Shown: positions 45,731 through 53,371, numbered from the stretch's first letter. The stretch: 53,371 bases of DNA from an uncultured Pseudomonadales bacterium (GCA_964655755.1 CAZZNJ010000002.1:1-53371), one strand, 5' to 3'. The notes: generated by a model not told the origin, from the letters alone. Made by a program: numbers and translations.

Positions 45731-47704
45731 TTACTCGTAGCGTAGTGCGTTAAGAGCAGAAATCTTGGTGGCGCGCTTGGCCGGGAAGTAGCCAGTGGCA
45801 ATTCCGACTAACATTGACAAGAAAATGACGGCAATCACAAATATTCCCGGAACATAAGAAATATCAACAAAACCCACTCCTTTGACAATAGAAAGTGCAG
45901 ACAGGACAATCGACAAAATCTTACCCACCACTAAACCTAAGATTAACCCCAAAATTCCGCCGTACAGACCCATGATCATTGACTCTGTTAGAAAGAGTGA
46001 TTTAACTTCCTCTGATTTCATTCCCATCGCTTTCATGAGTCCCACCTCCCGAGTTCGCTCCAAGAGCGAAACTGTTAGGGTGTTAAACATCCCCAGCGCC
46101 GCAACAGATAAGGCTACCATCCCAAGCACTGACAAAATCAAGCGGAAATTAGCAAACAAATTGTCAATCTGAGCCACCGTGTCTGCTACCGAAACCGTAC
46201 CATAACCCGCTGACTCAATCGTATTTCGCACCTTAGACAAGTTGCTCTTATCATCCACAATCACTTTGGTTTGGGAAAATTTATTAACTCCCATTGATCT
46301 GACATCAATAAACGGTACATAGATTATTGGCGTACCCTCATCTGGAATTACTCCCACAATTTCATATTCTAAGGGAGCTGATTCAATGCGTTTATTAGGA
46401 TCATCCAACAGCTCTCCCACCACCACCATCGAGAGATCAATTTTTTTGCCAATCGCTTCATTCTCAGCGATATTTAGAAGTTGCAAAACTGAGCGGTTGA
46501 CCACGATTTGTTTTTTCTCATCGCTTTTAACTTCGACTTGCTCGATATTTTGGTTACTAGCCGTAGCCGACTCACTGGCAATTTCAACAACTGGTAGTGA
46601 GCCATCATCCTCGGTGCTTACTCCCAAAACTTGACTCACCATCTCTTTTGGCTCTACTGTCATTGACAGTTCTGCCACATATCCTTCTGCCTGAGTTTGG
46701 GCGTTATCATCATCTCTTGCCACCAGATACTCGCCATCTTCACAGTCGCCTGATTCCTCAGTGTTACAGGCAACTTTATCCCACAATAAGTAATCTGACT
46801 TTACCCACTTACCAAGTGGCTCTCCATCTTCTGTCTCACCTAAACTCCCTGATTCACTGTTCGACTCATAACTCTCCCCCCAAACTTCTACGCCTTCAAC
46901 TTTTCCTTCCACTCGTTTGGTGTAGCCAATAATCGGAGAAGAGGTATTTGGTTCTTTCCTAACTTTAAGGAAAGTTCCTTGAGAAATCGAGATAGTGACC
47001 TCGCCAATTTCTTCGCCAACTTCTTTGGCAACGGAAGAGACACCTAAAACTGGAGGCAAGTTAGAGGTATCAAAACTAATCATATTGCTCTCAAAGAGTT
47101 TGCCTTTCACCGGTTGTAAAGCTGAGTAGCGCAAGTAATCAGCCGTAGCTCCATAAACGGCTAGATCAGAAACGGAGTTTTGATAAGAAACTCTCCCTAC
47201 CACTGCAATTAATGGGAGGGCGTCTTTAACATCGGCAATTTGCTTAAATCGGGCAAGAGTTTCATCAGTTAGACTTAAGTCTGCCGATAATCCCGGCACA
47301 ACTTCGGCTTGCTTTAATTCATCAAGGCGAGCAACCCTGGAGATCACTAGCTGTTGCAAACCATAACCAACAGAAACCAAAAATACAATAAAAGAAATCC
47401 CAATCGCCATCCCGCCAATCGTCACTATCGTGCGGGTCTTCTTGGCTGCCATGTTTTTAAAAGATATCTCGATTAAATACAATCTGGAAACACCACTTTT
47501 GTCAGCTTTGTCTAGCGACTTTACCTTGCTACTTAACTTATCCGAGATTGGTTTAAGTCGAGCCCACTTTTTAGCCAGTTTGGCTACAAACAAGGTCAAG
47601 GAATAAAGAATCGTCAACACCACAAAACTACTAATCTCATAGATTGAACGCATGAGCGACTTGAGTATTGGTTGATCGTGTTTTTTAAACTTAAATATTT
47701 TCAT
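45731..47704 (-). CDS. MacB/FtsX-type ABC transporter permease with a large extracytoplasmic domain containing an SH3b-like insert
   Basis: 657 aa. N-terminal TM segment, ~400-aa external domain (FLKVRKEPNTSSPIIGYTKRVEGKVEGVEVWG...WVKSDYLLW) and a C-terminal FtsX 3-TM bundle. Confidence 0.85.
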   Translation of the reverse strand: MKIFKFKKHDQPILKSLMRSIYEISSFVVLTILYSLTLFVAKLAKKWARLKPISDKLSSKVKSLDKADKSGVSRLYLIEISFKNMAAKKTRTIVTIGGMAIGISFIVFLVSVGYGLQQLVISRVARLDELKQAEVVPGLSADLSLTDETLARFKQIADVKDALPLIAVVGRVSYQNSVSDLAVYGATADYLRYSALQPVKGKLFESNMISFDTSNLPPVLGVSSVAKEVGEEIGEVTISISQGTFLKVRKEPNTSSPIIGYTKRVEGKVEGVEVWGESYESNSESGSLGETEDGEPLGKWVKSDYLLWDKVACNTEESGDCEDGEYLVARDDDNAQTQAEGYVAELSMTVEPKEMVSQVLGVSTEDDGSLPVVEIASESATASNQNIEQVEVKSDEKKQIVVNRSVLQLLNIAENEAIGKKIDLSMVVVGELLDDPNKRIESAPLEYEIVGVIPDEGTPIIYVPFIDVRSMGVNKFSQTKVIVDDKSNLSKVRNTIESAGYGTVSVADTVAQIDNLFANFRLILSVLGMVALSVAALGMFNTLTVSLLERTREVGLMKAMGMKSEEVKSLFLTESMIMGLYGGILGLILGLVVGKILSIVLSALSIVKGVGFVDISYVPGIFVIAVIFLSMLVGIATGYFPAKRATKISALNALRYE

Positions 47705-47706
47705 GA

Positions 47707-53105: not shown

Positions 53106-53371
53106 GTTAGTTGCTTAGTCTTGTTTAAATTCAGATAATTACGCTTGGTAGTAACTTTCTTGCCACTCTTTGTTTCCAGCTCAAGTCTGGCGTTACCGGC
53201 TACTGCGCCACCTGCTTTAGCGGCTTGTTTATTCTCGCTAAACCCTTGGGCGTTCTTGTTTTTGGCAATCTCGGTAGTAGAGGCTTCTCCCAACATGGAG
53301 AAGATTAGCTCTAAGTCACTCATGTGATCCCTGAGGTTTTCCCGTTTAAGCTTTTTGTGTTTCTTGTATTC
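53102..53371 (-). CDS. BRO-N/DinD-like protein, copy 2 (C-terminal part only; the 5' end lies outside the window)
   Basis: The frame stays open to the window edge: EYKKHKKLKRENLRDHMSDLELIFSMLGEAST... This parallels the copy-1 segment YKKYKGLKKENLRDNMTNLELVLNMLAEAST. Its TGA stop overlaps the ATG of the giant gene (ATGA). Confidence 0.75.
   Translation of the reverse strand, partial: EYKKHKKLKRENLRDHMSDLELIFSMLGEASTTEIAKNKNAQGFSENKQAAKAGGAVAGNARLELETKSGKKVTTKRNYLNLNKTKQLT

Follow-up and report, generated by a model that had tools for sequence, protein, structure and literature searches.

The end of a 53,371-nucleotide stretch of DNA deposited as an uncultured Pseudomonadales bacterium (GCA_964655755.1, CAZZNJ010000002.1:1-53371; this whole stretch is referred to below as the window, and coordinates are positions in it) carries three genes, encoding a giant surface protein, an ATP-binding cassette (ABC) ATPase and an ABC permease, that form a conserved module. 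The window is part of a chromosome of the Patescibacteria (Candidate Phyla Radiation, CPR), and the unit that is conserved across this phylum is the giant-ABC-permease triad, without the Bro-N-like gene that precedes it here and without the genes of a type IV secretion system (T4SS) that follow it. Comparison with related loci indicates that the giant protein is very probably the target of a diversity-generating retroelement (DGR) in the lineage of the window, and the T4SS is a separate cassette, often found beside the module. The novelty lies in how elements of known kinds are combined, namely a lectin adhesin targeted by a DGR, a type VII ABC transporter and a T4SS of the Patescibacteria kind. 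Much of bacterial diversity belongs to the Patescibacteria, which live attached to other microbes and whose means of host recognition are known mainly from a few Saccharibacteria. The module is a concrete, phylum-wide candidate for host recognition, in the form of a putative huge fibre, the tip of which would be DGR-diversified in about 40% of lineages, and it often lies beside a T4SS of a kind that is essential for epibiotic growth in one tested system.

The conserved three-gene module

A preliminary description of the window, drawn up from its sequence, had reported four minus-strand genes (Bro-N/DinD-like, giant FN3/lectin protein, MacB-type ATPase and permease) with 2-nt gaps and a 4-nt overlap, and had read them, with the T4SS genes, as a single 13-kb machine. 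The spacing is confirmed by the coordinates of the open reading frames (ORFs; Table 1): the TGA of the Bro-N-like gene overlaps the ATG of the giant gene (ATGA, 4 nt), and the giant/ABC and ABC/permease gaps are of 2 nt each. The gene identities are confirmed by Pfam and by a match to L011 (L-numbers designate homologous loci from metagenomes or genomes), and tight coupling of the four genes, as they are spaced in the window, is supported. The single machine is not borne out, the conserved unit being giant-ABC-permease: synteny across genomes upholds the linkage of these three genes, but neither the Bro-N slot nor an obligate link to the T4SS.

Synteny was counted with one genome per species, in the best 80 of at least 567 positive loci retrieved by tblastn with the proteins of the window. 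In 71 of 72 loci the permease gene is immediately preceded by the ABC gene, and in 57 of 62 the ABC gene is immediately preceded by a giant homologue. The five exceptions consist of three loci in which the giant gene has been displaced by an insertion (L023, L049, L071), one in which a giant homologue lies upstream on the opposite strand (L066) and one in which it lies downstream (L075). The giant-ABC-permease order is kept in five independent metagenome neighbourhoods with different surroundings (L001, L002, L004, L006, L008), and the whole three-gene unit is present twice in some genomes (L020/L046; L014/L075). The triad is very probably a functional unit.

The Bro-N gene is not a fixed member of this operon. 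The C-terminus encoded by the partial ORF at the end of the window matches that of a 283-aa protein of L011 with a Pfam Bro-N domain (E 4e-13), and the corresponding slot, between a reverse transcriptase (RT) gene and the giant gene, holds a Bro-N gene in the window, L011 and L019, a KilA-N gene in L010, L001, L017 and L021, and is empty in L002, L008, L013 and others. The slot gene could be a regulator or a selfish insertion. The Bro-N and KilA-N proteins of the slot are non-homologous, with only their last codons (…KTKQLT), which overlap the start region of the giant gene, in common.

More than 650 permease homologues were found, all of Patescibacteria type, and those bearing a name are labelled Pacebacteria, Paceibacterota or Patescibacteria. 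The remaining genes of the window are chromosomal (P-type ATPases, DsbD/cupredoxin, aldehyde dehydrogenase, CobW, Lon). Several records carrying the module (L010, which is JAIOHL010000169.1, and many of L014-L089) are titled 'Anaerolineae bacterium', 'uncultured Pseudomonadales', 'Gammaproteobacteria' or 'Bdellovibrionales'; such titles probably reflect mis-binned contigs or wrong taxonomic labels in public records of metagenome-assembled genomes.

The giant protein as a probable retroelement target

DGR targeting of the giant protein is absent from the preliminary description. L002 carries two bAvd genes and reverse transcriptases immediately before its giant gene, on the upstream side, and a 124-nt repeat joins the Avd-RT intergenic region to the giant gene, with every mismatch at an adenine of the upstream copy, which is the signature of a DGR. 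Pairs of template repeat (TR) and variable region (VR) are likewise found in L010, L011, L017 and L021, and Avd-RT is directly upstream in L010, L011, L002, L017 and L021. The closest relative of the window is L010 (permease 97% identical; 86% nucleotide identity across 12.7 kb), with the order Avd, TR, RT, KilA-N, giant, ABC, permease, T4SS; its Avd and RT were confirmed by Pfam.

The VR of the window, delimited by comparison with the TR and VR of L010, encodes …LRGGYWNDTSNAGAFALHLNGTPSRQSNNGGFRCASD, the C-terminal edge of the FGE-sulfatase/C-lectin fold. It differs from the VR of L010 at 17 of the 30 sites with an adenine in the TR and at 1 of the 88 others (Fisher 1.4e-11), the divergence between the two giant genes as a whole being 13.9% of sites. 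Mismatches to the TR of L010 are distributed in the same manner, at 11/30 TR-adenine sites and 2/88 others (Fisher 3e-6). The GC hairpin located after the VR, a candidate cis-acting element of the DGR, is identical in L010, L002, L017 and L013, and takes a compensated form (GGTCGC/GCGACC) in L011. An RT gene is found upstream of the giant gene in 19 of the 48 loci with sufficient flank. In L006 (also in L007), 23S_rRNA_IVP/bAvd-like genes flank the giant gene (L006 4228-4614 and 8939-9169), one of them between giant and ABC, and no RT is present in these two loci within 4.6 kb upstream; this arrangement may be a decayed or split DGR.

Several observations count against the action of a DGR on this protein. 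There is no TR, Avd or RT within the 53-kb window; the giant gene begins 266 nt from the end of the window, and any DGR upstream of it would sit just outside the window. L001, with a permease 80% identical to that of the window, has no RT within 4.6 kb upstream, and the VR of the window may therefore be frozen. About 60% of triads have no nearby DGR, which implies that diversification is not essential to the module. Finally, the VR is internal, at about 25% of the 1539-aa giant protein, and not C-terminal.

DGRs and Bro-N/KilA-N genes are typical of phages, and a low-GC islet with an OLD-type ATPase, a PLD nuclease and a GIY-YIG protein follows the T4SS, which would be in keeping with a phage-derived receptor-binding cassette, composed of the DGR, the Bro-N/KilA-N gene and the giant lectin, within an integrated element. 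This explanation is most improbable: the permease occurs in only 2 of 2.9 million viral contigs (IMG/VR), versus at least 567 species genomes, which indicates that the module is cellular, the triad has housekeeping neighbours that differ between loci, and no phage structural genes were seen. A viral origin of the module itself was rejected on the same count of two IMG/VR loci.

Architecture of the giant protein

The giant protein consists, from its N- to its C-terminus, of a Sec-type signal, a variable C-type-lectin/FGE-sulfatase head, an FN3 stalk and a conserved base. Pfam detects FGE-sulfatase at aa 186-397 (25.7 bits, cut-off 23.3), four Pur_ac_phosph_N stretches and fn3, and phmmer relates the lectin domain to FGE (6muj, E 6e-4; 2q17, up to 9e-4), with alignment of LRGG...GFRCA. 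The homologues of the giant (about 60, of 1000-2960 aa) share a basic n-region (consensus PRFHFxRFQFN), a hydrophobic segment and an x-(F/Y/H)-A↓(A/L) motif, at which the signal peptide is predicted to be cleaved.

The heads at the N-terminus are variable, and the last 400 aa are conserved, with a majority-residue frequency of 0.56-0.87 over 60 sequences; the terminal motif ITPKATxxALxLVIxNLxxAFGFLGG is present in essentially every complete homologue. A search with the C-terminal 130 aa yielded only truncated gene calls on short or error-rich contigs. None of the NCBIfam C-terminal sorting-signal models matches the C-terminus of the giant, and an LPXTG, lipobox or CTERM-type transmembrane (TM) anchor is absent from both of its ends. 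These features suggest that the giant is secreted as a fibre, the distal head of which, hypervariable in some lineages, would bind ligands, while its conserved base would require a conserved partner; this base is proposed as a candidate docking element for the ABC transporter.

The ABC transporter

The ATPase is of the LolD/FtsE/MacB-NBD type (ABC_tran E 3.6e-35), and its motifs are intact: GPSGCGKST (Walker A), LSSGQQQ (signature), IIIADEPT (Walker B-Glu) and VTHD (H-loop). Its best NCBIfam models, LolD (206.5 bits vs 307.75), DevA and FtsE (199 vs 265), all remain under their equivalog cut-offs. The permease is recognised by the Pfam models FtsX (61.8 bits, cut-off 25.5) and MacB_PCD (60.5 bits, cut-off 27). 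In its AlphaFold2 (AF2) model (mean pLDDT 74.8), an extra N-terminal helix is followed by TM1, a large extracytoplasmic domain and three C-terminal TM helices (FtsX), and the Foldseek matches of this model include 5gko (MacB, 4.4e-18), 9rld (7.5e-18), 5xu1 (Spr0694-5, 2.9e-17), 5nik (4.3e-16) and, further, LolCDE, YtrEF (9o9x), HrtBA and YknZ, over a range from E 4e-18 to 1e-8. The permease is thus a type VII (MacB-fold) ABC permease outside every named subfamily, because its scores with the equivalog models for MacB (79 bits vs a cut-off of 966), LolC/E (lolCE, 64.5 vs 362) and FtsX (27-37 vs 225-255) are far under the cut-offs.

Three named systems were considered for this transporter and rejected. 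A MacAB-TolC tripartite pump is contradicted by the MacB equivalog score and by the lack of an adjoining MacA/HlyD or outer-membrane protein (OMP) gene: no membrane-fusion (HlyD/MFP) or outer-membrane gene is present at 36-53 kb of the window or in the five independent neighbourhoods mentioned above. An FtsEX division complex is contradicted by an extracytoplasmic domain that is MacB_PCD and by the FtsX and FtsE scores, and the LolCDE lipoprotein release system by the lolCE and LolD scores.

The preliminary description had attributed to the permease an enlarged extracytoplasmic domain with an SH3b-like insert. The AF2 model confirms the enlarged domain and the insert, which is beta-rich and family-specific and lies between the first Porter half and the Sabre-like part (pLDDT 80-96); taken as a domain by itself, the insert has a confident fold (pLDDT 85-96) and no significant structural relative. 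The SH3b label stays a hint only, because it reaches significance neither with Pfam (SH3_3, E 0.012, 16 bits for a cut-off of 27, over 17 residues only) nor with Foldseek, in which the best E value is 0.24 and SH3b domains dominate the weak matches (5leo, 1r77, 2kt8; probability up to 0.72, TMt 0.54). The extra N-terminal helix of the permease may be either a fifth TM helix or an in-plane helix. Its residue F27 is invariant and Y34 nearly so in 33 orthologues, and it has no counterpart in solved MacB, LolC or FtsX.

One source annotates the homologues of the permease as 'ABC-type antimicrobial peptide transport system permease', and YtrEF, HrtBA and YknZ are among its structural matches; the transporter might accordingly be a generic exporter of the MacB/BceAB/YtrEF kind, or a transporter of peptides, lipids or wall precursors active in resistance or cell-wall stress, that merely shares an operon with the giant. 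This is very unlikely, given that the order of the triad is kept across classes of a phylum with an otherwise fluid gene order, and that the conserved C-terminus of the giant, the insert of the permease and the paralogous three-gene copies point to a specific partnership.

The T4SS cassette and its relation to the module

The six T4SS genes that follow the permease in the window occur in the same order in L002, L010, L011, L017 and L021 and in 80 metagenome loci, with no relaxase or coupling protein (T4CP) gene near the cassette. A hairpin and T-run between the permease and the pilin, which the preliminary description had reported as a terminator, are real (45636-45655, then TTTTTTG), and the pilin gene does start about 48 nt past them with its own Shine-Dalgarno sequence (AAGGAGG). 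A sigma-70-like promoter (11/12 match) upstream of the hairpin had gone unnoticed. The leader formed by the promoter, the hairpin and the Shine-Dalgarno sequence is kept upstream of pilin genes both with the triad and with unrelated upstream genes (L002, L010, L011, L017, L021, L090, L102, L105, L112, L145, L167). Three of the six stem pairs of its hairpin show compensatory changes, and an Rfam scan of the pilin leader gave no match; the hairpin could control T4SS/pilin expression, either as an attenuator or by stabilising the 5' end.

Among the triad loci, the T4SS is immediately 3' of the triad in 4 of 63, and within 4 kb in one more. The converse survey covered 80 metagenome loci anchored on VirB4 (74-86% identical), 40 of them informative and forming 36 clusters after dereplication. 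The triad permease is directly upstream of the pilin in 15/40 informative T4SS loci (11/36 after dereplication), an adjacency far above chance, and unrelated genes are found upstream in 25/36 clusters of the same VirB4 clade. The two parts differ in their identity to the window: in L011 it is 83-86% for the triad and 41-77% for the T4SS, and in L002, L017 and L021 it is 53-70% and 48-84%, respectively. The junction between the permease stop, the promoter, the hairpin and the pilin is constant despite this incongruent divergence (window 40447-53105 vs L002, L010, L011, L017, L021 and L036), which points to an exchange of cassettes or to their repeated capture at a single site. The T4SS is, thus, a separate unit, because it has its own leader, its adjacency to the triad is facultative and the identities of the two parts are incongruent.

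In the genome set, a DGR is present in 5/5 T4SS-linked triads, as against 14/43 others (hand-computed Fisher ~0.007, for loci that are not phylogenetically independent). In two other loci (L119 7028-9322; L158 3-6900), Avd-RT-giant is located on the far side of the T4SS or divergent from it, and the association of a DGR adhesin with a T4SS therefore persists in different layouts.

The reading in the preliminary description, that Bro-N, giant, ABC and T4SS genes form one co-regulated 13-kb machine, in which the ABC and giant proteins would be subunits of the channel, has in its favour the contiguity and common orientation of these genes in the window, as well as the recurrence of the same order in L002, L010, L011, L017 and L021 and in 11/36 T4SS clusters. 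A survey of Patescibacteria T4SSs (Quinonero-Coronel et al., 2025; PMC12102498) detected no PrgB-type adhesin, an absence that leaves room for one. The reading is nevertheless quite unlikely, in view of the 4/63 triad loci with a T4SS immediately downstream, the unrelated upstream genes of 25/36 T4SS clusters, the context-independent T4SS leader, the incongruent triad and T4SS identities and a Bro-N gene that is replaceable or absent.

Wang et al. (2023; PMC10633639), who leave the module unmentioned, showed that the Saccharibacterium S. epibionticum requires its T4SS and several adhesins for growth as an epibiont. No triad orthologue from this organism is evident among the matches listed. Its essential FN3 protein SEML1_0890 was considered as a link to the triad and put aside, being of 195 aa with different neighbours, and no claim is made for it.

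Proposed mechanism

The model proposed here is that of a giant fibre held by an ABC transporter, with a DGR-diversified head and a separable T4SS, and it is given an even chance of being correct. The giant protein would be exported by Sec, with removal of its signal peptide, and its conserved C-terminal base would dock on the extracytoplasmic domain of the permease dimer, which would make the ABC transporter the membrane anchor of the fibre. The transporter may serve as an actuator or a release device through ATP-driven mechanotransmission, as FtsEX does on EnvC/PcsB. The fibre would display its DGR-diversified head tens of nanometres off the cell, where it could bind variable host-surface ligands, and the T4SS may cooperate with it, in host capture and host manipulation, as an autonomous system and not as part of one indivisible machine.

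Several points weigh against this model. The species-level synteny counts (71/72 and 57/62) are not phylogenetically independent. Contact between the C-terminus of the giant and the permease is deduced from their co-conservation in an operon, which is no proof of contact. Signal cleavage is read from a motif alone; retention of the N-terminal helix as a membrane anchor would place the lectin head close to the membrane, and the picture of a distal head would fail.

The same obligate synteny of the triad equally fits a dedicated maturation system, in which the ABC transporter would, for example, extract the N-terminal signal-anchor of the giant from the membrane or drive its passage across the wall or S-layer, and some other element would then hold the fibre, or it would be shed. 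LolCDE, which extracts the acyl chains of lipoproteins, is among the top Foldseek matches in complex with a lipoprotein, and the unusually long conserved n-region of the giant could be a recognition element. Such a role in export or release appears unlikely. It leaves unexplained why the C-terminal 400 aa of the giant and their helix, rather than the N-terminus, are its most conserved part, and the ends of the giant have no other anchoring motif (LPXTG, lipobox or CTERM-type TM) by which the fibre might be held.

Returning to the fibre held by its transporter, a more far-reaching version can be put forward only tentatively, and with some doubt: the module might be a 'grappling hook' powered by ATP and programmable by a retroelement, in which the transporter would hold the base of the fibre and actuate it mechanically while a DGR continually rewrote the lectin head. 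It would then be the host-recognition adhesin so far missing from Patescibacteria, by which their T4SS is positioned on prey or host. This would explain the repeated shared junction of module and T4SS. If true, the module would give the first example of an adhesin driven by a MacB-type mechanotransducer, and would offer a direct genetic handle on the host range of CPR bacteria. In more general terms, the biology of type VII ABC transporters would be extended to a possible new class of client, the giant adhesin, and the giant protein is a well-supported candidate for a DGR target with an internal VR and cis elements embedded in coding sequence, against the usual rule.

Other features of the window

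The coordinates of the features are given in Table 1. A low-GC islet (0.35-0.39) directly follows the T4SS at 36543-40406 and resembles a small islet of defence genes or mobile DNA; its place in L002 is taken by a type I restriction-modification system. Two sets of repeats are found elsewhere in the window. Tandem direct repeats of about 159 nt (70% identity) lie at 7449-7834, within a 178-aa ORF (7376-7912, minus strand). An ORF at 16737-17300 (plus strand) has an internal 66-nt repeat, 255 nt apart (16868-17188), with a duplicated …MIEHH.GAI.MAK… motif, and adjoins the genes for a heavy-metal P-type ATPase and for DsbD/cupredoxin, within a cluster devoted to metal handling. Both were considered in a search for a TR/VR pair within the window, and rejected as unrelated repeats.

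Table 1. Features of the module, of the T4SS cassette and of their surroundings. Positions refer to the window, except where a locus is named.
Feature	Position	Strand	Basis or remarks
Bro-N/DinD-like gene, 3' part, truncated at window end (RT-giant slot gene)	53102-53371	-	ORF; C-terminal match to L011
RT-giant slot gene, L010	L010 3779-4603		KilA-N
RT-giant slot gene, L011	L011 3794-4645		Bro-N
RT-giant slot gene, L001	L001 3798-4625		KilA-N
Giant surface protein, 1539 aa	48486-53105	-	ORF; Pfam
Giant, N-terminal signal region, aa 1-52	52950-53105	-	basic n-region PRWHLSRFQLN, h-region, VFA↓LND signal-peptidase-I-like site
Giant, DGR variable region (VR), aa ~361-399	51909-52026	-	comparison with L010 TR and VR
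GC hairpin GGCCGC-nnn-GCGGCC, ~40 nt 3' of VR, in coding sequence	51858-51872	-	candidate DGR cis-acting hairpin
Giant, C-terminal base, aa 1140-1539	48489-49688	-	four FN3-like domains, terminal amphipathic helix PKATRSALDLVIKNLSEAFGF
ABC ATPase, 258 aa	47707-48483	-	ORF; Pfam ABC_tran
ABC permease, 657 aa	45731-47704	-	ORF; Pfam MacB_PCD, FtsX
Permease, extra N-terminal hydrophobic helix, aa 14-46	47567-47665	-	precedes elbow helix and TM1
Permease, beta-rich insert, aa ~227-352 (~130 aa)	46649-47026	-	AF2; invariant W300, W308, C313, C321
T4SS leader	45629-45703	-	promoter TTGACT-16-TATAAT (45703-45676), then hairpin and T-run (45655-45629)
T4SS cassette, Patescibacteria-type (MPF-FATA-like)	40447-45581	-	six genes
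VirB2-like pilin (T4SS_pilin/TrbC)	45246-45581	-	Pfam
VirB6-like, 426 aa, polytopic, pilin-like N-terminus	43932-45212	-	Pfam
PrgI/VirB3	43456-43935	-	PrgI 22.2 bits, cut-off 27
TrsD/TraC-like	42842-43459	-	TraC-like annotation in L002
VirB4	41050-42849	-	TraG P-loop/AAA_10
M23 peptidase	40447-41046	-	Pfam
Islet, OLD/AAA_15-type ATPase	38556-40406		
Islet, PLD-like nuclease	37645-38100		
Islet, GIY-YIG	37243-37542		
Islet, DUF5946	36543-37076		

Comparison with known systems

In agreement with the preliminary description, a MacB-type ABC transporter and a giant FN3/lectin protein beside a T4SS are not described in the open-access literature that was searched. This literature contained no paper combining DGR, CPR and ABC transporter, and none with both 'diversity-generating retroelement' and 'MacB', a prior description being still possible. 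LapA, which is accompanied by LapBCE, is a very large, repeat-rich adhesin encoded beside its own ABC transporter, and part of its sequence keeps it at the cell surface. The giant, a putative adhesin, resembles it in its size, its repeats and its adjoining ABC genes, and would likewise be retained through part of its own sequence. LapB is a type I-secretion ABC exporter of a diderm bacterium that works with a membrane-fusion protein and an OMP and recognises a C-terminal secretion signal, whereas the permease described here has the MacB fold and no adaptor, and its putative adhesin partner has an N-terminal Sec-type signal.

The transporter shares with MacB, LolCDE, Spr0694-0695, YtrEF/YknYZ and HrtBA the topology of TM1, a Porter/Sabre-type domain and three TM helices, with a separate LolD/FtsE-like ATPase. 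It has no MacA/HlyD or TolC partner, it has an extra N-terminal helix and an obligate giant FN3 partner, and its Trp/Cys insert is absent from solved members. The nearest working analogy is FtsEX with EnvC, PcsB or RipC, in which a type VII ABC transporter holds a helical element of its periplasmic or extracellular partner and moves it by means of ATP, with no solute transport, and FtsEX structures are among the fold matches to the TM domain of the permease. The domain outside the membrane is, however, MacB_PCD and not FtsX_ECD, and the partner, with which an interaction is proposed by analogy, would be an FN3 fibre of 1000-2960 aa without a hydrolase-activating or coiled-coil domain.

The giant has several features of the targets of known DGRs, such as Bordetella phage Mtd, Treponema TvpA, Legionella LdtA and the CPR 'clade 2' DGRs: the same Avd-TR-RT cassette (in relatives of the window), adenine-specific differences between TR and VR, a VR borne by an FGE-sulfatase/C-lectin scaffold, with GFRCA at the end, and a GC hairpin that follows the VR on its 3' side. 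The VR is usually located at the C-terminus of the target protein (PMC8144416). In the giant, unlike these targets, it is internal (at about 25% of the 1539 aa), which places the DGR cis elements inside coding sequence. The DGR targets of CPR bacteria typically have no recognisable TM or other domains (Roux et al.), whereas the giant has, besides its signal, about 10 domains of the FN3 type and is paired with an ABC transporter.

The T4SS has the repertoire reported for Patescibacteria (PMC12102498), with VirB2-like, VirB6, PrgI/VirB3, TrsD and VirB4 proteins and an M23 peptidase in the place of VirB1. The same survey has no mention of ABC, FtsX, MacB, permease, retroelement or fibronectin, and what the present loci add to the published Patescibacteria T4SSs is a recurrent junction with the module formed by the DGR, the giant protein and the ABC transporter.

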